In this document: one piece after another, positions 7,194 to 53,625 of the stretch | Layout: each line of letters opens with the position of its first letter | Numbering within the stretch: position 1 is the first letter of the stretch | From: Candidatus Omnitrophota bacterium | Lineage (GTDB): Bacteria > Omnitrophota > Omnitrophia > Omnitrophales > Aquincolibacteriaceae | Reading direction: 5' to 3' | NCBI GenBank assembly: GCA_016196545.1 | Contig: JACPXM010000022.1 | Location: forward strand, 5,064-69,063 | DNA length: 64,000 nucleotides | Notes under the pieces: generated by a model | Told to the model about the DNA's origin: nothing | The model's database searches: none | The model's input: the letters and a program-made list of their open reading frames with translations, nothing else | Program-made: the position numbers and the translations under genes

Positions 7194-8801
7194 TCAATTT
7201 TGTAGTTTGCCGATAAGACCGTACTTTTGAATTTTATAGCCGATCATGCGCTCCGTCATGCCAAGCAGTTTAGCGGCCTTGCGTTTGTTTCCATCGGTTT
7301 TGTCCAAGGCTTGGGAAATCATCCTTTTTTCCATTTCTTCCACGGCTTCAGGCAAGGACACACCCTTTGTTTCTTCGGGCATTTGGGGCTCAAACGAGGT
7401 AAGCCCGGGGCCTTTGGAATCTTTAGGGAAGGGAAAAAGGTCCGGTGTTAAGATGTCGGTTTTACAAAGAATGACAGCCCTCTCAATCGCATTTTCAAGT
7501 TCCCGCACATTTCCCGGCCATGCGTAATTCATTAAATATTCCATGGCCTCATCGGAAACAAAGCGCACTTTCTTTCTATTTTCTTCTGAGGCGCGGACAA
7601 GAAAATGATTTACAAGGAGCGGGATGTCCTCCCGTCTCTCTCTGAGAGAGGGCATAAAAATAGGAATAACATTTAACCGGTAATAGAGATCCTCACGAAA
7701 CTTTCCCGCGCGTACGTCGTCTTCAAGATTCCGGTTTGTGGCGGTAATCAGCCGCAGATCGACGCGAATCGTTTGCGTCCCTCCCAACCTTTCAAATTCC
7801 CTTTCCTGTAAAACGCGCAGGAGTTTAATTTGCGTGCTGGGCGCAATGTCTCCGATTTCATCCAAAAATAAAGTTCCCTTATTCGCCATTTCAAAACGGC
7901 CGATTTTTGTGATTGCAGCACCGGTGAAGGCACCTTTTTCATAACCGAAAAGTTCGCTTTCAAGAAGGGTTTCGGGAAGTGCCGCACAAGAAACCTTGAT
8001 AAAAGGACCATTGGCGCGTTCACTATTATAATGAATGGCATGGGCCACAAGCTCTTTGCCGGTGCCGCTTTCCCCCCGAAGCATGACGGTGGCCCGGGAC
8101 TGGCTCACAAGCTCAATGGAGGCATAGACATCGGCCATGCGTTTACTTTCACCGATGATATTTGCAGGATGAAATTTCTTTTTAAGTTCACGCCTCAGCT
8201 CGATATTTTCACTCTGAAGCCTTTCTTTCTCACGCTCCTGCATCAAATGGATATGAACCGTTTGAGCGATCATGGAGCTGATAATGGTAAGGAGTCGTAC
8301 ATCTTCTTCGAAGGAAACATTTTCCTGGAAAAGCTGGTCCACGCTGAGCGCGCCAATGGTTTTTTGCTCCCACTTAATAGGGACACAAATAAAAGAAATA
8401 TTGCTTCTTTTGACATCTCCTCGGGATCCCGTACGATTCAAAAAAAGCGGCTCATCACCCACATTAGGCACCACAATGGGTTCCCCGGCGGCCACGACCT
8501 TTCCGGTAATTCCCTCACCGACACGGTAGCGGCCGCGCTCAATGGCCTTGTCATCAAGGCCGCGGGCCACTTCAATAATTAATTCATGGGTGCGATCGTC
8601 AAGGAGCGTGAGGGTTCCGCGCTCCATCCCCATATGACGGTGAAGAATGTCCAGAATCTCACTCATCACCTCTTCAAGGTTCAGGGAAGAGCTTGCCGTC
8701 TTAGCGATTTCATAAAGCGTTGTAAGCTCCAGGACTTCGCGTTTTAATCCTGTCAGGGTATCTGAAGTTTTTTCTCGAACCGGTTTTTCTTTTTTTTTCA
8801 T
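7194..8801 (-). CDS. Sigma-54-dependent transcriptional activator, GAF-AAA+-HTH (NifA/NtrC-like, no receiver domain)
   Basis: 535-aa ORF. N-terminal GAF-like region, AAA+ core (GESGTGKE, ESELFGYEKGAFTGA), C-terminal Fis-type HTH (NKRKAAKLLGMTERMIGYKIQKYGL). Confidence 0.9.
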   Translation of the reverse strand: MKKKEKPVREKTSDTLTGLKREVLELTTLYEIAKTASSSLNLEEVMSEILDILHRHMGMERGTLTLLDDRTHELIIEVARGLDDKAIERGRYRVGEGITGKVVAAGEPIVVPNVGDEPLFLNRTGSRGDVKRSNISFICVPIKWEQKTIGALSVDQLFQENVSFEEDVRLLTIISSMIAQTVHIHLMQEREKERLQSENIELRRELKKKFHPANIIGESKRMADVYASIELVSQSRATVMLRGESGTGKELVAHAIHYNSERANGPFIKVSCAALPETLLESELFGYEKGAFTGAAITKIGRFEMANKGTLFLDEIGDIAPSTQIKLLRVLQEREFERLGGTQTIRVDLRLITATNRNLEDDVRAGKFREDLYYRLNVIPIFMPSLRERREDIPLLVNHFLVRASEENRKKVRFVSDEAMEYLMNYAWPGNVRELENAIERAVILCKTDILTPDLFPFPKDSKGPGLTSFEPQMPEETKGVSLPEAVEEMEKRMISQALDKTDGNKRKAAKLLGMTERMIGYKIQKYGLIGKLQN

Positions 8802-9607
8802 GCTTTGACCCCGACAAGGGCAATCCCCTTGCGATTGGCTTTTTGCACGAATTCTTCTTGATCCAAGAAAATGGTTTTTCCGGCTTCAAAACCCAAGGCC
8901 TCGGCTTTAACCTCAATGAGTTCTTTAAGAGTTCCAAGACCCACGGCGGGAATATCAAACCGCATGTCCTGACCGGGCTTGGCGACTTTGACCACCACCA
9001 CTTTTCCTCCGCCGAGCTCCCCACCACGGCGAATGGTGCGGTCGGTTCCTTCAATGGCTTCAACGGCCATAACCGCCCTATTTTTCACTACGACGGTTTG
9101 TCCGATGTCGGCGCCGGCAATCGATTTTGCGACTAAAAATCCAAAGTGAATGTCCCGCATGACCCCAGGGGAAGGTTTGCGTTTCCCTAAAATCCCCTCG
9201 CCGGGAAGCGCGTTTTTAAGAAATAATGTGGAGTCCAAAAGGTCAATCCCTTCCGAGTGCAGGTAATTTGCAACTGCACCCAGCAACGTGTCGTCTTTTC
9301 GGTCCCGGAGTTGAGCCATGACTTTTATCATCTCAAGGTCCGGACGAACATTGCCCTGAAAAATCCGCACCTTTTCCACCTTTCCTGCCATCAAGGCTTC
9401 ATGAACCGTATGCGCCCGGAAAAATTTTACGAGTTTTTTAAGTTCACCGAGCTTCACCCAAGTGAATTCATCCGCCATTTTTTCAAGCGCCGGATCCGCC
9501 TCTTTTTCAATGCCGCACACGGCCACTTGATAGCCTTCCCGTCTTGCCTCCTTGGCAGCAAGCAAAGGAAAGCGCCCATTTCCGGCAATAATACCAATCG
9601 TTTTCAC
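8798..9607 (-). CDS. lpxI: UDP-2,3-diacylglucosamine pyrophosphatase LpxI (DUF1009 family)
   Basis: 269-aa ORF with LpxI-like blocks (IGIIAGNGRFP.., GQTVVVKNRAVMAVEAIEGTDRTIRR). Directly follows lpxA. Confidence 0.8.
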   Translation of the reverse strand: MKTIGIIAGNGRFPLLAAKEARREGYQVAVCGIEKEADPALEKMADEFTWVKLGELKKLVKFFRAHTVHEALMAGKVEKVRIFQGNVRPDLEMIKVMAQLRDRKDDTLLGAVANYLHSEGIDLLDSTLFLKNALPGEGILGKRKPSPGVMRDIHFGFLVAKSIAGADIGQTVVVKNRAVMAVEAIEGTDRTIRRGGELGGGKVVVVKVAKPGQDMRFDIPAVGLGTLKELIEVKAEALGFEAGKTIFLDQEEFVQKANRKGIALVGVKA

Positions 9608-9635
9608 AAAAGTGTCCTTGCGGAGGTGTTTAATT

Positions 9636-10406
9636 TTAGCGACAGATGCCCCGCTGCGAAGTCCTTAAGAATTCCAGCAGATCCACCAGAACAGGGGGTG
9701 TGGGCGTAAACCCTTCGATTTTTAAAATGGCGTTTTTTAAAGTCAACTTCGACTTAAAAATGCTCTTGAATGCTTTTTTTAGCATCGCTTGATCCTCATC
9801 GGAAATCCCTTTTCGCTCAAGGCCCACGGTATTGAGGCCATAGGCGCGGGCCGGATGACCATCCACCAGCGTAAACGGAGGCACATCCTGCACGACTTTA
9901 GAACAACCCCCGATGAGCGCGAGTTTTCCGATTCTCACAAATTGATGAATACCGCTGAGTCCTCCGATAATGGCGTTGTCATCCACCCCCACATGACCGC
10001 CAAGCGTTGCCGCATTGGCCAATACCGTGTGATTGCGAATCACGCAATCATGCGCGACATGAACATAAGCCATCAACAAATTATCATCGCCAATGACGGT
10101 TTCGCTGCCATCTTTAGTCCCCGGATTAATCGTTACGTATTCACGAATAATATTGCGGTCTCCAATTTTTAAAAAACTAATGCCGCCCTCAAATTTTTTG
10201 TCCTGGGTACGGCTTCCGACAATGGCGCCCGTAAAAATTTCATTTTCCGCTCCGATCGTGGTGTGCCCTTCAATTTGGACGCGGGCCCCCACCCGGGTTT
10301 TTGGCCCGATTTTGACCGTCCCGGCCACCATCGAATAAGGACCTATCTCCACTCCCTCGCCCAGCTCGGCATCCGCCGAGACAATGGCCGTGGGATGAAG
10401 CGTCAC
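9636..10406 (-). CDS. lpxA: Acyl-ACP--UDP-N-acetylglucosamine O-acyltransferase
   Basis: Left-handed beta-helix hexapeptide repeats and an LpxA C-terminal domain. The ORF track begins at 10442. I prefer GTG at 10406 (GTGA overlap with the lpxC/fabZ stop), which gives the canonical (M)TLHPTAIV N-terminus. Confidence 0.85.
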   Translation of the reverse strand: MTLHPTAIVSADAELGEGVEIGPYSMVAGTVKIGPKTRVGARVQIEGHTTIGAENEIFTGAIVGSRTQDKKFEGGISFLKIGDRNIIREYVTINPGTKDGSETVIGDDNLLMAYVHVAHDCVIRNHTVLANAATLGGHVGVDDNAIIGGLSGIHQFVRIGKLALIGGCSKVVQDVPPFTLVDGHPARAYGLNTVGLERKGISDEDQAMLKKAFKSIFKSKLTLKNAILKIEGFTPTPPVLVDLLEFLRTSQRGICR

Positions 10407-11689
10407 GGTTCCACGACTGCGAATTTCACTTCCGCTTCGCATACTAATTTATCTCCCACAAAGGCCTGTCCCGCACATTGCCCGGTTTTGGCTCGAATTT
10501 TTTGAACTTTGATTTCAAAACGCAATTCATCCCCCGGCACTACAGGGTGACGAAACTTGGCGGAATCAATACTCATAAAATAAGCGATTTTATTCCGGTT
10601 TTCAGGTTTGCTTAGCATGATCACACCACCCACTTGGGCCATCGCTTCAATAATCAAAACACCGGGCATCACGGGATGGCCCGGAAAATGGCCCTGAAAA
10701 AAATAATCATTCATGCTCACCAATTTAAAACCCGTCGCGCACTCTCCCGGCACAAAGTGATCAATTCGATCCACAAAAAGAAAAGGGTAACGGTGGGGGA
10801 TGATTTTTTGTATGTCTTGAACGGTTAATTTAGAGGGCAGGGATGCCATAGGATCCTCCTTACAAGCGGCTATAATTTTTTTCACCATTTCGACATTGAG
10901 AGCATGGCCACTGCGGACGGCAATAATATGGCCGCGGATAGGGCGCCCCGCAAGGTATAAATCTCCCAGTAAATCCATCATTTTATGGCGGCAGGCTTCA
11001 TTTTCAAACCGAAGCGTGTTTTCAAGGGGGGCGTTTTTTTCAAACACAAGGGTATTTGTGAGATTCGCTCCCTTTCCAAATCCTTGTGCTAAAAGGGCCT
11101 CCGCTTCCTGTTTCAAACAGAAGGTGCGGGCCGGCGCAAGCTCCCTTTCAAAAATTTCCGGTAAAATTCGAAGCGAAAGAAACTGATCCTTCAAGTCTTC
11201 ATGCCGGTAACTCAAAGTATAGGAAATAGAAAAAAAAGGAGCCGGAAGCGCAATCACCGATTGGTTTCCCGAATCAACATAAAGAGGTTCCTTAATTTCA
11301 AGGTAGCGGCGGGGAGATTCCTGTTCCCTCAAGCCCCTCGAAAGAAAGGATTCCGTAAAATCCTTGGCGCTTCCGTCCATGGCCGGCATTTCGTCGCCGT
11401 CTACTTCAATTTCGGCATTATCGATACCAAGGCCGTGAAGCGCCCCCATAACATGCTCAATCGTGCGAACGACTCCCGTACCCACCCGGAGGGCGGTTTG
11501 CCGCATTTCATCGCTTTGAACGTTTTTAATCGAAGCCTTGGCTTTAAATTCGGGATCAAGATCAATGCGGCAGAAATGAATTCCTGTATTAACAGCGGCC
11601 GGTTTAACAACGGCCTTAACCGGTTGGCCGGTATGGAGACCCCTTCCCTCAAAAACAACCGGTCCCTGTAAGGTTTTTTGAAAGCTCAT
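10403..11689 (-). CDS. lpxC: Bifunctional UDP-3-O-acyl-GlcNAc deacetylase / 3-hydroxyacyl-ACP dehydratase (LpxC-FabZ fusion)
   Basis: 428-aa ORF. LpxC N-terminal part (..[10 protein letters not shown].., ..[16 protein letters not shown]..) joined to a FabZ hot-dog domain ([23 protein letters not shown]). Confidence 0.9.
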
Positions 11690-27789: not shown

Positions 27790-28089
27790 CTGCGGTTGGG
27801 TTTCCTAACATTCCTTCTATTCCTTTTTTTAATGTAACAAACCTAAAAATGCCCTCTTATCAATTTCTTCCAATTCATAGCATTTCCGAGAAGGCCTCAA
27901 TTTTTGGGATCAGCGGGTTTCAGAACTGATTTTCAACCTTCAAAATCTATTTTAAAGACTCAGCGCTAGCACGCGTTTTCTCAGGGTATTGCAGATCGCA
28001 TACTCCACAGGTATGTTTCAGTACAAGAAGGGAAAGAAACGAGAACTAAAATCAAGGAATCTACGAAAAGATAAAAAAAAGGATAAAAA

Positions 28090-28296
28090 ATGAATCCTAT
28101 GGACGGAAGTATCGGAAACGAGAAAAAGGAAATATTAACGCCCCGGGAAATCAGCAAACTGCTGTCCATTCCACTTTCCACGGTTTATAAACTGACGGCC
28201 CAGGGAAAATTCAAGGCAACCAAAGTCGGAAAACACCTTCTGCCGTCGGACAGCTTTTCTGCGCCTTTATTTTTATCCTCTATTTTATCTACCTGA
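28090..28296 (+). CDS. Small helix-turn-helix protein, excisionase/MerR-like HTH with atypical C-terminus
   Basis: 68-aa ORF. LTPREISKLLSIPLSTVYKLTAQGKFKATKVGKH resembles the excisionase-family HTH (..STVYRL..G.L.A.KVGR.). The sequence after KVGKH departs from the usual WRF motif. Located in an AT-rich, otherwise non-coding gap. Confidence 0.45.
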   Translation: MNPMDGSIGNEKKEILTPREISKLLSIPLSTVYKLTAQGKFKATKVGKHLLPSDSFSAPLFLSSILST

Positions 28297-28333
28297 CCCG
28301 CTAAGGCCGACATCTTCCCACGACATAATAACA

Positions 28334-28416
28334 ATTGAAGTTGGGGTTTTTCAATTTCAAGGGTCGTCGTGTACAGTACCGCGAACCCCTAAAATTTAAA
28401 ATGACGCGGTACTAGG
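28334..28416 (+). repeat. Double-hairpin repeat element, copy A
   Basis: 28373-28416 is 100% identical (44 nt) to the reverse complement of 52752-52795. The hairpin at 28334-28360 is about 85% identical to the reverse complement of 52801-52826. The CTAG at its 3' end contains the stop codon of the MgtC-like gene on the other strand. Confidence 0.85.
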
Positions 28417-28861
28417 CGTCGTGGCCGCCGAAGAGACGATCAATTTTCGAGAAAAGAATCAAAATCACCAGGGCAAGAAAGGTCGAAAGAACGGCGGGTT
28501 TATATTGCCCTAGCCCGCACGCAAGGCCAATACCGGCCACGGTCCAAATCCCTGCGGCGGTTGTCAGTCCTTTGATTTCCCGAGGGTCGCGAATAATGGC
28601 CCCGGCTCCGAGAAATCCGATTCCGCTCACCACCTGCGCGGCAATACGCGAAGGATCCACCGTCGCCACGGCCCGGTAAATTTCAAAAACTTCAATCGAG
28701 ACAACCATGATTAAGGCCGAGCCTAGCGATACCATTGCGTAGGTCCGCACCCCGGCTTCCTTGCGCTGCCACTCGCGCTCAAAACCAATCAGTCCTCCGA
28801 GAAAAGTTGCCGCAATTAATCGAAGCGTAATGTCAAAATCATTCTGGGTGAATTGAAACAT
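28412..28861 (-). CDS. MgtC/SapB family membrane protein
   Basis: 149-aa ORF with the MgtC N-terminal domain pattern (..LRLIAATFLGGLIGFEREWQRKEAGVRTYAMVSLGSAL..). Confidence 0.85.
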   Translation of the reverse strand: MFQFTQNDFDITLRLIAATFLGGLIGFEREWQRKEAGVRTYAMVSLGSALIMVVSIEVFEIYRAVATVDPSRIAAQVVSGIGFLGAGAIIRDPREIKGLTTAAGIWTVAGIGLACGLGQYKPAVLSTFLALVILILFSKIDRLFGGHDA

Positions 28862-30357: not shown

Positions 30358-31344
30358 TTAGTCATTCACCCTCACAGCTAATTCTTTGTCGAGCAATTCC
30401 TGGTTGATATAAATTTTACCGGCCCAAACGTCAGCGAGGTAGCGGTCGTATTTGTCGGACCTCACGGTTTTGATCATCACCGGCGAGGAGTGACGCGTGG
30501 CGGGTGACAGAAGTTTTTTAAGAAATTCTTTGGCTTCCTTGCCTTCCGCACTTTCGATTTCGGGAGCGTCGAGGCCGCGCAGCCGGAGTTTCTGGTGCGT
30601 CCAAATTCCGAAGCCAAGGTGAATGTTCGCCCAAAACGTGTCGCCGTCAATCACATCTTCAACTTGAACTTCGTAAGTATAAAGGTCCTCCGCGGGAGGA
30701 TTTGTGGGTTCCGGCACTGGACCTTTAATTTCATAAAAATTAGCAAAGCCGAGGTCGTAAACTTTTTTGCCGTTCCAATCAATCACAAGATAGGTCCCGA
30801 TTTTCCCGGGCTTGGCAACTAGGGGCACGGTAGGCCACGTCTCTGCTTCGGAACCGCCCGACCGGGACTTGCGTTTGCGAATTTCCTCGCGCACCTGGTC
30901 TCGCGTCCAATTCCGATTTAGGGCTTCCCTGGCAACGGCTTCTCTTTCTTCAGGATCGTTAAGCGATAAAAGCGCCTGGTAATGACTCCAGCTCAATTTA
31001 TTGGCGGGCCAATTCATTGGGTACGCTCGGGCAAATTGGAGCATCAAACTAAGTTCCGTTTGGCTGGTGCCAAGATCTCCTGCCAGTTTATCGAGTACCC
31101 TCTTTCCATAATCAGCCCTTTCTTTAAATTGAAGGACATGCTCATCAATTAACTTTCCGGTCTCCCAAGCCTCGCGAACTTTTTCCTGCCTAACAGCAGA
31201 CTCAATTCGCTGAACGGTGGCGGCGCGCGTCTGGCGAATCGCCTTCACGAGCTGCTCGTAAGTCGCCACCTGCGACGCGGCAATCGCAGGAAAAGAGAAT
31301 AAAAAAAATAAAATTCTAACTAAGTTTTTTGGTGAGAATTTCAT
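30358..31344 (-). CDS. Secreted nuclease: signal peptide + DUF1016 N-terminal-like domain + staphylococcal-nuclease (SNase) domain
   Basis: ATG at 31344 gives MKFSPKNLVRILFFLFSFPAIAA|SQ (Sec signal, AxA). The middle part resembles DUF1016_N (..YGKRVLDKLAGDLG.., LSWSHYQALLSL). The C-terminal part has SNase motifs (VIDGDTF.., LRLRGLDAPE, DKYDRYLADVW). The track start at 31428 is a TTG. Confidence 0.75.
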   Translation of the reverse strand: MKFSPKNLVRILFFLFSFPAIAASQVATYEQLVKAIRQTRAATVQRIESAVRQEKVREAWETGKLIDEHVLQFKERADYGKRVLDKLAGDLGTSQTELSLMLQFARAYPMNWPANKLSWSHYQALLSLNDPEEREAVAREALNRNWTRDQVREEIRKRKSRSGGSEAETWPTVPLVAKPGKIGTYLVIDWNGKKVYDLGFANFYEIKGPVPEPTNPPAEDLYTYEVQVEDVIDGDTFWANIHLGFGIWTHQKLRLRGLDAPEIESAEGKEAKEFLKKLLSPATRHSSPVMIKTVRSDKYDRYLADVWAGKIYINQELLDKELAVRVND

Positions 31345-31384
31345 TGGCGAGTTTGGGATTGGCTTTGCCGCTTTGCTCTTGCAA
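31316..31384 (-). pseudogene. Diverged duplicate of the gatB 3' end (22 codons + stop), in frame with gatB
   Basis: It translates to [22 protein letters not shown], compared with the genuine gatB end [23 protein letters not shown]. Over the 17 aligned codons from GKANP to the stop there are 9 synonymous and 2 non-synonymous differences. Confidence 0.7.
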
Positions 31385-31432
31385 AGCGACTCTTTGGGGA
31401 GAACTTGAGGTTCTCCTCCGAAGCGCAAACCC

Positions 31433-34786: not shown

Positions 34787-34839
34787 CAAAACTTACCGGT
34801 TCCAGGTTGCCGCCGGCAACCTGGAACCGGTAAGTTTTG
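34787..34839 (-). terminator. Long near-perfect palindrome / terminator immediately after rsmA
   Basis: CAAAACTTACCGGTTCCAGGTTGCCG-C-CGGCAACCTGGAACCGGTAAGTTTTG forms an approximately 24-26 bp stem. It starts at the base after the rsmA stop, and the 3' arm ends in TTTTG on the minus strand. Confidence 0.7.
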
Positions 34840-35688
34840 TTAGTTTAAAGCTTCGGCGAGGGCCATAAAATCTTTTAAAAGCAGCTCCTCTGCCCTGACT
34901 TTCGAATCAAATCCCAAAGACACAATCCTCTTTTCAAGATTGCTTCTATCCTGTTTAATTTTGGGCCAGCGGGAAAGCAGATGAAGCAGCGTTTTCCGGC
35001 GCTGGCTGAAAGCAACCTTGATTAAATCAAAAAGAAATTCCTCCTCTTTTTTCGAAAATCCCGAAGGCCTCGCCCTGAATTTAAGCACCAGGACCGTCGA
35101 ATCCACGTCCGGCTCAGGCGCAAAACAACGCCGTGAAATATCAAAGGCGTGGACGATTTCTGCGCTGTAGCGGAGACCCAACGTGAGACGGCCATAATCT
35201 TTAGAGCCGGGTGTGGCCAGAAGGCGCTTTGCCACTTCTTTTTGCATCGTAAGGACCCCCCGCTCAATCAGGGACCTGCTTTCTGTAAGATAAAATAAAA
35301 TCGGACTCGTTAAATAATAAGGGAGATTGCTGAGGACCTTGACCTGGCCGCCTTTTTTAACGCCTCGGGCCCATTGTCTAAAATCAAAATCTAAAATATC
35401 CCCGTGAATCAAATGGATTGTCTTTTTTGCCTCCTCACCGAGTTCCTCTTCAAGAAAACGAATCATTCGTTGATCGCGTTCGATCGCAGTCAATTGAAAT
35501 CCCCGGTTGAGGATTTCAAAACTAAGCGCTCCCAAACCGGGCCCGATTTCAAGCAGCCTGTCGGATTCCTCCAGCTCCAGCAAATCTACGATTTTGCGCT
35601 GAATATTGGGGTCGATCAAAAAATTCTGCCCAAGGGATTTTCGCAGTGAAAGATTGTGCCGTTTTAGAATTTCAATTTGCGTGGGCAT
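34840..35688 (-). CDS. rsmA: 16S rRNA (adenine1518/1519-N6)-dimethyltransferase
   Basis: 282-aa ORF, ..LGQNFLIDPNI.., SAM-binding motif ..LEIGPGLGALS... Confidence 0.92.
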   Translation of the reverse strand: MPTQIEILKRHNLSLRKSLGQNFLIDPNIQRKIVDLLELEESDRLLEIGPGLGALSFEILNRGFQLTAIERDQRMIRFLEEELGEEAKKTIHLIHGDILDFDFRQWARGVKKGGQVKVLSNLPYYLTSPILFYLTESRSLIERGVLTMQKEVAKRLLATPGSKDYGRLTLGLRYSAEIVHAFDISRRCFAPEPDVDSTVLVLKFRARPSGFSKKEEEFLFDLIKVAFSQRRKTLLHLLSRWPKIKQDRSNLEKRIVSLGFDSKVRAEELLLKDFMALAEALN

Positions 35689-51852: not shown

Positions 51853-52734
51853 TTAATTCTCCGACTCGAATTCCTGCTTTTTTTCAGCTTTGGATTCAAT
51901 TTTTGATTCACTCGGCGAAGCGGGCTCTTGCCCTGATTTAATTTCCTCCGCAGGGACCCGTTTTTTAGCCTTTGAAACTAATTTCTTTGGCGTCGACGGA
52001 GCGCCCGCCTGACCCGTCTCTGACGCTTCAGATTTTTCCGCAACCTCAGTTTGTTCCTCCTGCCCGAATCGCTGAATATGGGCAAGACGCTGGGCCGCCT
52101 CTTCCTTTTTCACCAGGATGTCGCCTTTATAAATCCATACTTTGCAGCCAATCGTACCGTAAGTGGTAAATGCCTCGGCAAAACCGTAATCAATATCCGC
52201 GCGAAACGTGCTCAGCGGAACCTTTCCTTCATGATATTTTTCATCCCGCGCGATTTCAGCACCGCCCAGACGCCCTTTGCAAAGAACTTTGATACCAAGC
52301 GCTCCCTTCGACATAGCCAGTTGGACAGATTTTTTCATTGCACGGCGAAAACCCACACGCTTTTCAAGCTGCATGGCGATATTTTCCGCCACAAGCTGAC
52401 CGTCTGTTTGGGGGGATTTCACTTCTTTAATATCCACAAAGAGCTCATCTTGCGTCAAGGCACCCAATTCTTCTTTAATCTTGTCGATTTCCTGTCCGCG
52501 ACGGCCGATAATCACACCTGGACGGGCCGTATGAATTCTCACGCGCACGCGGCCGCTGGAACGTTCAATCTCAACATTTGAAATTCCAGCAAAGGCCAGC
52601 TTCTTTTTCAAAAATTTTCGCAGCTTCAAGTCTTCGTGAAGAAACTGACTGAAATTTTTCCGCGCAAACCAGCGTGCCTTCCATGGCTTGATATACCCTA
52701 ATCTTAATCCGTAAGGATGTGCTTTTTGACCCAC
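51853..52734 (-). CDS. rpsC: 30S ribosomal protein S3 with ~80-aa acidic/lysine-rich C-terminal tail
   Basis: GTG start at 52734 preceded by AAGGAGG (52740-52746). (M)[13 protein letters not shown].., with KH and S3-C domains. Confidence 0.94.
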
Positions 52735-52751: not shown

Positions 52752-52843
52752 CCTAGTACCGCGTCATTTTAAATTTTAGGGGTTCGCGGTACTGTGCAGA
52801 TTGAAATTGAAACCCCTAATTTCAATCTTGACGACGCACTAGG
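52752..52843 (-). repeat. Double-hairpin repeat element, copy B, in the rplV-rpsC spacer
   Basis: Its reverse complement matches copy A (44/44 nt core 52752-52795; hairpin 52801-52826 about 85%). It is bounded by CCTAGT (52752-52757) and ACTAGG (52838-52843). The latter contains the rplV TAG stop. Confidence 0.85.
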
Positions 52844-53324
52844 CTTTCTGCTTGATTGTCTTTTTCTTCTTTTGTTCTGCGGCTTTATCCAAGCTTGCCG
52901 CATCGCTTTGAGGCGTCCCAAACGTTTTCCACTCTTTCGTACCTTCTTTGAGGGTGATTGAAAGATGTGTTGTTCTTTTAATAATGCGATCCGCACGGCC
53001 CATGGAGCGGGACATAAAGCGCTTCATCACTGTCCCTCCATCCGCGCGAACCTCTGAAACATAAAGACGATTTTCATTCATGCCTAGCACCTTGGCATTG
53101 GCAACCGCAGATTTGAGGAGTTTTTCAGTCATCCGAGCGGCCTTTTTCTTTACCGTCATCAAAATCGGAAAGGCCTTGACAATTGGCTCGTGACGAATCG
53201 TGTCGATCACAAGCCGCATCTTGCGCGGCGAAATCTTAAGGAATTTGACGCGTGCAAAGGCCTTTCGGGATTCCACCAACGGATTGAGAGGTTCCGATTT
53301 TTGAGTTTGTTTGGTTTCTTTCAT
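52839..53324 (-). CDS. rplV: 50S ribosomal protein L22 (N- and C-terminal extensions)
   Basis: L22 core (..ISPRKMRLVIDTIRHEPI..). I prefer ATG at 53324 (MKETKQ..). The track start at 53348 is a TTG inside rpsS. Confidence 0.9.
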   Translation of the reverse strand: MKETKQTQKSEPLNPLVESRKAFARVKFLKISPRKMRLVIDTIRHEPIVKAFPILMTVKKKAARMTEKLLKSAVANAKVLGMNENRLYVSEVRADGGTVMKRFMSRSMGRADRIIKRTTHLSITLKEGTKEWKTFGTPQSDAASLDKAAEQKKKKTIKQKA

Positions 53325-53325
53325 T

Positions 53326-53625
53326 TTAAGCTTTCGCCGCCGTTGCAAGGGCCTTGGCCTTGTCCTGCGAAGTACTATGCTTTTTAAAGGTTCGCGTCGG
53401 TGAAAATTCCCCGAGTTTATGACCCACCATATTTTCTGTCACAAAAACCTTATGAAAAATTTTCCCGTTGTGCACCTCAAACGTCACGCCCACAAATTCA
53501 GGGACAATGGTAGAACGCCGAGACCATGTCTTGATCGGCCGGCGGTCCTTTCTTTGAACAGCAACCTTAACCTTCTTTGCAAGCTTCTCATCCAGATAAA
53601 CACCTTTTTTCGAGGAGCGACTCAT
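53326..53625 (-). CDS. rpsS: 30S ribosomal protein S19
   Basis: 99-aa [18 protein letters not shown].., ..[16 protein letters not shown]... Confidence 0.95.

Follow-up and report, generated by a model that had tools for sequence, protein, structure and literature searches.

A probable IS630-type miniature transposable element beside mgtC and inside the S10 operon of an Omnitrophota genome

Results and discussion

Two copies of a short repeat in unrelated gene settings

The window analysed here, the whole stretch of 64,000 nucleotides taken from a contig of a Candidatus Omnitrophota bacterium, contains two copies of a short repeat that lie in unrelated places and in opposite orientations. Copy A is found between a small ORF encoding an HTH_17 protein (+ strand) and a convergent mgtC gene (- strand), where the following features were recognized:

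28090..28296, + strand: small ORF of the HTH_17 excisionase family (Pfam HTH_17, TIGR01764), just upstream of copy A
28318..28415, + strand: whole of copy A of the putative miniature transposon (MITE); element proper ~28321-28412, right TA at 28413-28414
28318..28334, + strand: decayed left terminus of copy A; exact boundary uncertain, within 28311-28334
28335..28360, + strand: hairpin 1 of copy A, stem TTGAAGTT / AATTTCAA, with the inner left-repeat motif TTGGGGTT
28361..28372, + strand: 12-nt linker of copy A, GGGTCGTCGTGT, which pairs with CACGAC at the left end
28382..28415, - strand: right terminal inverted repeat of copy A, reading inward CTAGTACCGCGTCATTTTAAATTTTAGGGGTTCG; matched by both the search pattern and the profile
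28412..28861, - strand: mgtC (MgtC/SapB family, 149 aa; Pfam MgtC, E=8e-43), TAG stop at 28412-28414

Copy B is located in the S10 operon, in the interval between the stop codon of rplV and the Shine-Dalgarno sequence of rpsC:

51853..52734, - strand: rpsC (S3), with an AAGGAGG-N5-GTG start just downstream of the putative MITE
52753..52842, - strand: copy B, intact; element proper 52756-52839, 84 nt
52753..52786, + strand: right terminal inverted repeat of copy B, read inward and identical to that of copy A
52809..52842, - strand: left terminal inverted repeat of copy B, CTAGTGCGTCGTCAAGATTGAAATTAGGGGTTTC (profile E=4e-7)
52839..53348, - strand: rplV (L22; Pfam Ribosomal_L22, E=3e-31), TAG stop at 52839-52841 within the left CTAG

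The two copies share a 44-nt block, ACAGTACCGCGAACCCCTAAAATTTAAAATGACGCGGTACTAGG, which is identical at 28373-28416 (+ strand) and 52752-52795 (- strand); the preliminary description of this DNA had reported this exact repeat, and both positions were verified. The pair is the longest inverted repeat detected by a whole-window repeat scan, which retrieved no additional members and so left the count at two copies in 64 kb. No third site for the 44-mer was found in the window even with three mismatches permitted, and at the same tolerance none of 100 shuffled sequences gave a match. Profile searches of the window and of ~70 kb of relatives' loci retrieved neither degenerate copies nor solo terminal repeats. 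The junctions are also present in raw reads from two runs, as Logan unitig L001 spans the mgtC-element junction and L002 spans the element-rpsC junction. Both unitigs end within the repeat, as the de Bruijn graph does, which argues that the repeat is not an artefact of MAG assembly. The element is 84-92 nt long and contains no ORF, all six frames being short or interrupted by stops, and tblastn detected no IS630-type transposase in the window, in line with the earlier remark that a transposase is absent nearby.

Family members in metagenomes and the extent of the element

In order to find further members, we used a degenerate search pattern, TAGTNCNNCGTCANNNTNNANNTTAGGGGTT, built solely from positions common to the left and right repeats, which matched the three intact ends of the window and hit four JGI metagenome contigs. 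One contig (L019) carries a third full copy, 98 nt long and with the same two-hairpin architecture, which has CTAG at both ends (7831-7834 and 7925-7928) and left and right ends identical at 23/34 positions. It lies between an HTH_17-like ORF, the TAG stop of which coincides with the left CTAG, and greA, on a contig that has no genes in common with the window or its relatives. Contigs L020-L022 contain a longer, 153-nt MITE with the same ends. In L020 (70-1447) a single CTAG serves both this longer MITE and the right end of an IS630-family insertion sequence (IS), the two being inserted side by side, and in L022 the MITE is split by an IS701-family element (NF049999, 257 bits).

Exact words of 20 and 21 nt taken from the core and the right repeat (GTACCGCGAACCCCTAAAAT; AAATTTAAAATGACGCGGTAC) gave zero matches in GTDB representatives and zero in JGI metagenomes, counts that do not bound the copy number, the source genome probably being absent from or masked in these collections. 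When phage and plasmid collections were searched with the element by blastn, the matches were at chance level only (E about 3), and a 15-mer search of viral contigs returned seven matches without flanking similarity.

Copies A, B and L019 were combined in a profile, which matched 28318-28416 (nhmmer, E=9e-31). Copy A aligns with the L019 copy without gaps (73/98 positions identical, and 36/48 where neither the search pattern nor the decayed end is involved), from which it follows that copy A reaches ~16 nt further left than had been described; the 83-nt span given previously was too short, had missed the decayed left end and becomes ~28318-28415. This left terminus reads CCCACGAC, compared with CTAGTACC (CTAGTRCC...) in intact copies, and is identical to the left end of copy B at 15/30 positions and to that of L019 at 12/30. 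It was missed by the terminal-repeat profile and is without a recognizable left repeat, CTAG or TA, so that copy A, with CTAG at its right end only (28412-28415), is probably immobile. Copy A lost its left terminus and probably stays fixed in place.

Copy B retains both ends, with TA at 52754-52755 and 52840-52841, each within a CTAG (52753-52756 and 52839-52842). Its left and right repeats (CTAGTGCGTCGTCAAGATTGAAATTAGGGGTTTC and CTAGTACCGCGTCATTTTAAATTTTAGGGGTTCG) extend over ~33-34 nt and are identical at 22/34 positions including CTAG, or 18/30 beyond it. The imperfect inverted repeat noticed earlier at the ends of this copy is therefore present, its length being ~33-34 nt, not 12 nt, and it already contains both of the complementary loops discussed below. 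Hairpin 1 proved to be as quoted before in both copies, and its stem is conserved among the three copies, the only changes being to G-U, which keep the pairing. Hairpin 2 of copy A (stem 28375-28383 / 28405-28413) was verified as a 9-bp stem with a 21-nt loop (-13.4 kcal/mol, z = -4.1), and its 3' arm is formed by the outer 9 nt of the right repeat. The 12-nt linker is also found in L019 and is thus ancestral, copy B carrying a 7-nt deletion.

The HTH_17 ORF upstream of copy A is treated here as a neighbour of the element. An ORF of this type is located directly 5' of copy A and of the L019 copy in the same orientation, the two proteins (28090-28296 in the window and 7550-7834 in L019) being weakly similar (13/33 identical, E=4e-5), and this neighbour is absent at copy B. 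The proximity may be a coincidence, since there are many HTH_17 genes in these genomes, or an association. A larger element that would start from the CTAG at 27966 and include the HTH_17 ORF was considered and rejected, no repeat being found there by local alignment or by the terminal-repeat profile. A promoter-like sequence, TTGAAA-18-(TG)TATTAT (10/12 matches; 28325-28354, - strand), lies within copy A and is absent from copy B; it faces out of the decayed left end, antisense to the HTH_17 ORF.

Empty sites in relatives

Empty sites were looked for in relatives at both window loci and were found. The rplV-rpsC spacer measures 104 nt here compared with 10-30 nt in five relatives' contigs (S3 78-91% identical), and the site is empty in all five (L003, L004, L005, an ENA contig and L006). 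In L006 a spacer of 84 nt was observed between rpsC and rplP (1506-1589), compared with 2-10 nt in other relatives, and it shows no similarity to the MITE profile. The 3' end of mgtC is likewise empty in L007/L008 and L009-L011; mgtC of the nearest relative (85% identical) ends in GCC TAA, with the next gene only 10 nt on, and the gene order TsaD-MgtC-...-Zip-HisG is conserved in L009. About 50 MgtC homologues end at the same residue (...GG[KHR]D[AV...]*), and hence the position of the stop is ancestral. Together, the empty sites of the relatives and the ancestral stop identify both window copies as insertions of ~90 nt. A narrower event, in which the end of mgtC received hairpin 2 alone and 7-8 bp were duplicated (TCGTCGTG / GCGTCGTG), changing ...GGHDDP* to ...GGHDA*, was ruled out because homologues end in ...GG[KHR]D[AV]* at the same position and because the linker lies within the element according to L019.

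The ends resemble those of IS630-family elements

Besides the 153-nt MITE, contig L020 contains a full-length IS of 1,227 bp encoding HTH_32 and DDE_3 domains (Pfam), and its product is identified as an IS630-family transposase by NCBIfam NF033545 (116.5 bits against a cutoff of 100). The ends of this IS, CTAGTGCCGCTTCAATCTTGAAATTG..., are identical to the left end of copy B at 23/34 positions (19/30 beyond CTAG). Further IS630 homologues were fetched by a protein search with the L020 transposase, independently of the DNA pattern. This search retrieved one IS in at least eight different flanks, plus one in L023, and CTAG brackets every copy. The terminal repeat of the fetched homologues, CTAGTGCCTTGTCAGCTTTGTTTTTAGAGGTTAA, is again identical to the right repeat of the window element at 19/30 positions beyond CTAG, and for copy A the match is with the left end of an IS630-family IS. 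It includes the inner TTTTAG(G/A)GGTT motif and has P ~1.6e-4 at fixed register. Different IS630-family elements in the group have ends whose mutual similarity covers a range that includes 19/30; at ~63-68%, the resemblance of the window element to IS630 ends is moderate and below the near-identity of RUP and IS630-Spn1. The IS630-family elements in L020, L023 and L027-L034 have a common terminal-repeat motif and CTAG flanks, and the motif TTTTAGAGGTT is found in the terminal repeats of full-length IS630-family elements.

Transposition in the IS630 family is of the cut-and-paste kind and involves binding of the transposase to the terminal repeats (PMC2170065), and IS630 inserts at the TA of 5'-CTAG-3', the TA being duplicated (Tenzen & Ohtsubo 1991, as reported in PMC2170065). 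On the basis of these comparisons of sequence, we consider it likely, with a probability of about 0.85, that the element is a non-coding MITE of ~84-92 bp of the IS630/Tc1-mariner type, which keeps terminal repeats of ~33 nt, CTA|GTRCNNCGTCA...TTAGGGGTT, and a short palindromic core. Of the origins proposed in the preliminary description, a MITE is the one borne out, by the terminal repeats, the CTAG/TA flanks, the empty sites, the third copy and the IS630-like ends. An IS630-family DDE transposase supplied in trans would bind the terminal repeats and excise the element, which would then be pasted into the TA of a CTAG target with duplication of the TA; this proposed route agrees with the behaviour of IS630 as PMC2170065 reports it. 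Copy B looks mobilizable if the genome has a cognate transposase.

The closest parallel is RUP of Streptococcus pneumoniae, which is likewise ~100 bp, non-coding, intergenic and inserted at TA, forms a long stem-loop and has terminal inverted repeats resembling an IS630-family IS, being derived from IS630-Spn1 (PMC2229807). There is, however, no sequence relationship between RUP and the window element. RUP is present in ~108 copies, with ends near-identical to those of the co-resident IS630-Spn1, whereas two copies of the window element were counted and its ends are ~65% alike; its target also appears to be restricted to CTAG, unlike that of RUP. IS630 of Shigella sonnei and ISY100 show the same TA duplication and preference for 5'-CTAG-3' in the account given by PMC2170065, and a DDE transposase that contains an HTH binds their terminal repeats. 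Elements of the IS630 family are ~1.2 kb long and carry the transposase (orfA/orfB), in contrast to the 84-92 bp of the window element, which has no ORF. The Correia/NEMIS elements of Neisseria are also MITEs (100-155 bp) with TA termini and long terminal repeats, and are often co-transcribed with their neighbours as a stable hairpin (PMC2229807), but they have no sequence similarity to the window element, and IHF sites, promoters and demonstrated RNase III cleavage are features of Correia.

As far as Rfam and the searched literature go, the family is previously undescribed, and none of the papers listed by the literature search connects Omnitrophota with IS630 or with MITEs. The terminal repeat CTAGTRCNNCGTCA...TTAGGGGTT together with the CTAG target provides a signature with which such repeats, and the contig breaks that result from them, can be annotated in MAGs of Omnitrophota and other bacteria. 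No new mechanism is opened by these observations.

Stop codons as insertion sites

According to the preliminary description, the CTAG at an element end supplies the TAG stop of a flanking gene in both copies. The overlap of CTAG with the stops of mgtC and rplV is confirmed, but the stops pre-existed, as the ancestral end of MgtC indicates. We read the T and A of the mgtC stop as target-derived and the G alone, the last base, as coming from the MITE. Removal of copy B together with one TA restores GCC-TA-GGAGTTTAAGGAGG, an 18-nt spacer as in relatives, with the TAG stop intact. The sites before insertion would read GCC-TA-GGAG at the rplV stop and, on the other strand, GCC-TA-GGAA at the mgtC stop. 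A stop codon survives insertion at its TA because TA+G is regenerated by an element that starts and ends with G/C, and the case thus illustrates how a stop codon is restored when an insertion of IS630 type takes place at its TA.

A TAG stop adjoins all three known insertions (28412-28414 and 52839-52841 in the window, 7832-7834 in L019). CTAG is ~9-fold depleted in the window, with 27 occurrences compared with 248 expected from base composition, and ~94% of the window is coding. Both of the C-TAG stops among the ~66 ORF-level genes are occupied sites, and ~10 intergenic CTAGs are unoccupied. With CTAG depleted in sequence that is 94% coding, the CTAGs of stop codons would be among the few harmless targets, which would account for the position of the element on stop codons. 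The occupancy of stop codons may reflect selection in a 94%-coding genome, or it may reflect an extended target, GCC-TA-GGR.

Lying within the S10 operon, copy B would necessarily be co-transcribed with its neighbours. Its sense RNA is predicted to fold as a single long hairpin and not as two (-35.4 kcal/mol, z = -5.0), since the left and right thirds of the element are complementary to each other, and in the predicted fold the ribosome-binding site and GTG start of rpsC are unpaired. No terminator-like site was detected within copy B; in copy A a weak junction hairpin and one promoter-like match were detected, neither of which is common to copy B. In this model, copy B would add a stable stem-loop (~-35 kcal/mol) to the transcript without adding a terminator and would leave the rpsC ribosome-binding site open, which is consistent with a tolerated, co-transcribed passenger. 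Whatever its effect, the copy documents the insertion of a mobile element inside the highly conserved S10 ribosomal-protein operon. A stronger proposal would be that the MITE homes to CTAG stops and that copy B has been co-opted as a stem-loop that uncouples or tunes rpsC and the downstream genes relative to rplV; by analogy, it might act as an RNase III site, as in Correia elements. We regard this proposal as improbable.

Alternatives to an IS630-type MITE

The preliminary description also drew attention to the complementarity of the two hairpin loops and raised the possibility of a structured RNA module. The complementarity is real, at 9/9 positions in copy B and over TTGGGGTT in copy A, but a kissing-loop RNA module is unsupported. 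The two loops, TTAGGGGTT and AACCCCTAA, correspond to the inner halves of the left and right terminal repeats, and a double hairpin with complementary loops would follow from an inverted-repeat design; a seemingly exotic structure is thereby explained as the standard anatomy of a miniature transposon.

A functional structured RNA, either in addition to a MITE or instead of one, would use the double hairpin with kissing loops, or the long hairpin, to act in cis on flanking messages, either by affecting processing or stability of the RNA between rplV and rpsC or as a 3'-UTR element after HTH_17 genes. The folds are indeed more stable than those of shuffled sequences (z -3.1 to -5.0), both hairpins are kept in the three copies, the three copies are oriented alike with respect to an upstream gene that runs in the same direction, and transcripts of Correia MITEs are RNase III substrates in Neisseria (PMC2229807). 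However, the hairpins and the complementarity of their loops are fully accounted for by the terminal-repeat design, copy B is without a terminator-like site, and Rfam offers no match for the element. At gathering thresholds only a tRNA elsewhere in the window was retrieved, and at E<=10 the matches were at chance level (mir-7911, 14 bits; PhotoRC-I, 10 bits). The covariation term is zero, with one compensated pair among 23, in an alignment of three sequences that has low power. The element is missing at the orthologous positions in all relatives looked at, and full-length IS630-family elements carry the same motif in their ends; both findings weigh against a primary role as RNA. An RNA of this kind is thus judged quite unlikely, and a subsidiary function, such as that of a substrate for RNase III by analogy with Correia elements (PMC2229807), may exist but is improbable.

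Insertion of IS5-group elements takes place at YTAR/CTAG, and the duplication comprises the full four bases. If the element derived from IS5, the element proper would run from TGCG to GGTA and the CTAGs on both sides of copy B and of the L019 copy would be 4-bp target duplications. There is a precedent in MITEPsy1 of Pseudomonas syringae, an IS5-related MITE of 100 nt that inserts at CTAG with duplication of CTAG/YTAA (PMC3189936). The duplication of TA and that of the whole CTAG are inseparable by sequence alone, and IS5 stays a minor rival for this reason. The ends, however, match those of IS630-family elements (HTH_32 + DDE_3, NF033545) over ~30 nt, including the inner TTTTAGRGGTT, in contrast to the IS5-type ends of MITEPsy1 (GGAAGGTCTG...) with their 4-bp duplication, and among the elements recovered here there was no IS5-like end or transposase. 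An IS5 origin is accordingly very unlikely.

Terminal inverted repeats and target duplication are both absent from IS200/IS605 elements, which have subterminal hairpins and insert 3' of a fixed word of 4-5 nt. The two strong hairpins, which may alternatively be seen as a pair of neighbouring palindromic units with GTAC at the foot of each, would suit an IS200/IS605 palindrome-associated element or a REP/BIME unit moved as single-stranded DNA by a hairpin-recognizing Y1 (HUH) transposase, but the ends are mutual inverted repeats bracketed by a duplicated TA within symmetric CTAG flanks and match DDE (IS630-family) elements, and the two hairpins are unrelated in sequence, so that one Y1 enzyme would not recognize both; this alternative, the IS200/IS605 form of which was raised in the preliminary description, is the least tenable and can be set aside with little hesitation.

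Other observations in the window

The surroundings of copy A differ from those in the relative L009, in which larB (AIRC) and larC (Ni_insertion) lie between mgtC and the ZIP transporter gene (9056-10570). The corresponding interval of the window (27790-28411) is without larB and larC, and its ~620 nt contain the HTH_17 ORF and the putative MITE instead, which suggests, from the gene order, a deletion or replacement at this position. An ORF at 30358-31428 (- strand) encodes a DUF1016 N-terminal domain fused to a staphylococcal-nuclease domain. Together with an ORF of 131 aa it is located between tsaD and the next large ORFs, while gatB adjoins tsaD in L009, and it is possibly an inserted gene. 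Finally, a perfect palindrome of 53 nt at 34787-34839, with arms of 26 nt and a 1-nt centre (CAAAACTTACCGGTTCCAGGTTGCCG / CGGCAACCTGGAACCGGTAAGTTTTG), is a single-copy sequence unrelated to the MITE and lies directly 3' of an ORF at 34840-35688 (- strand).
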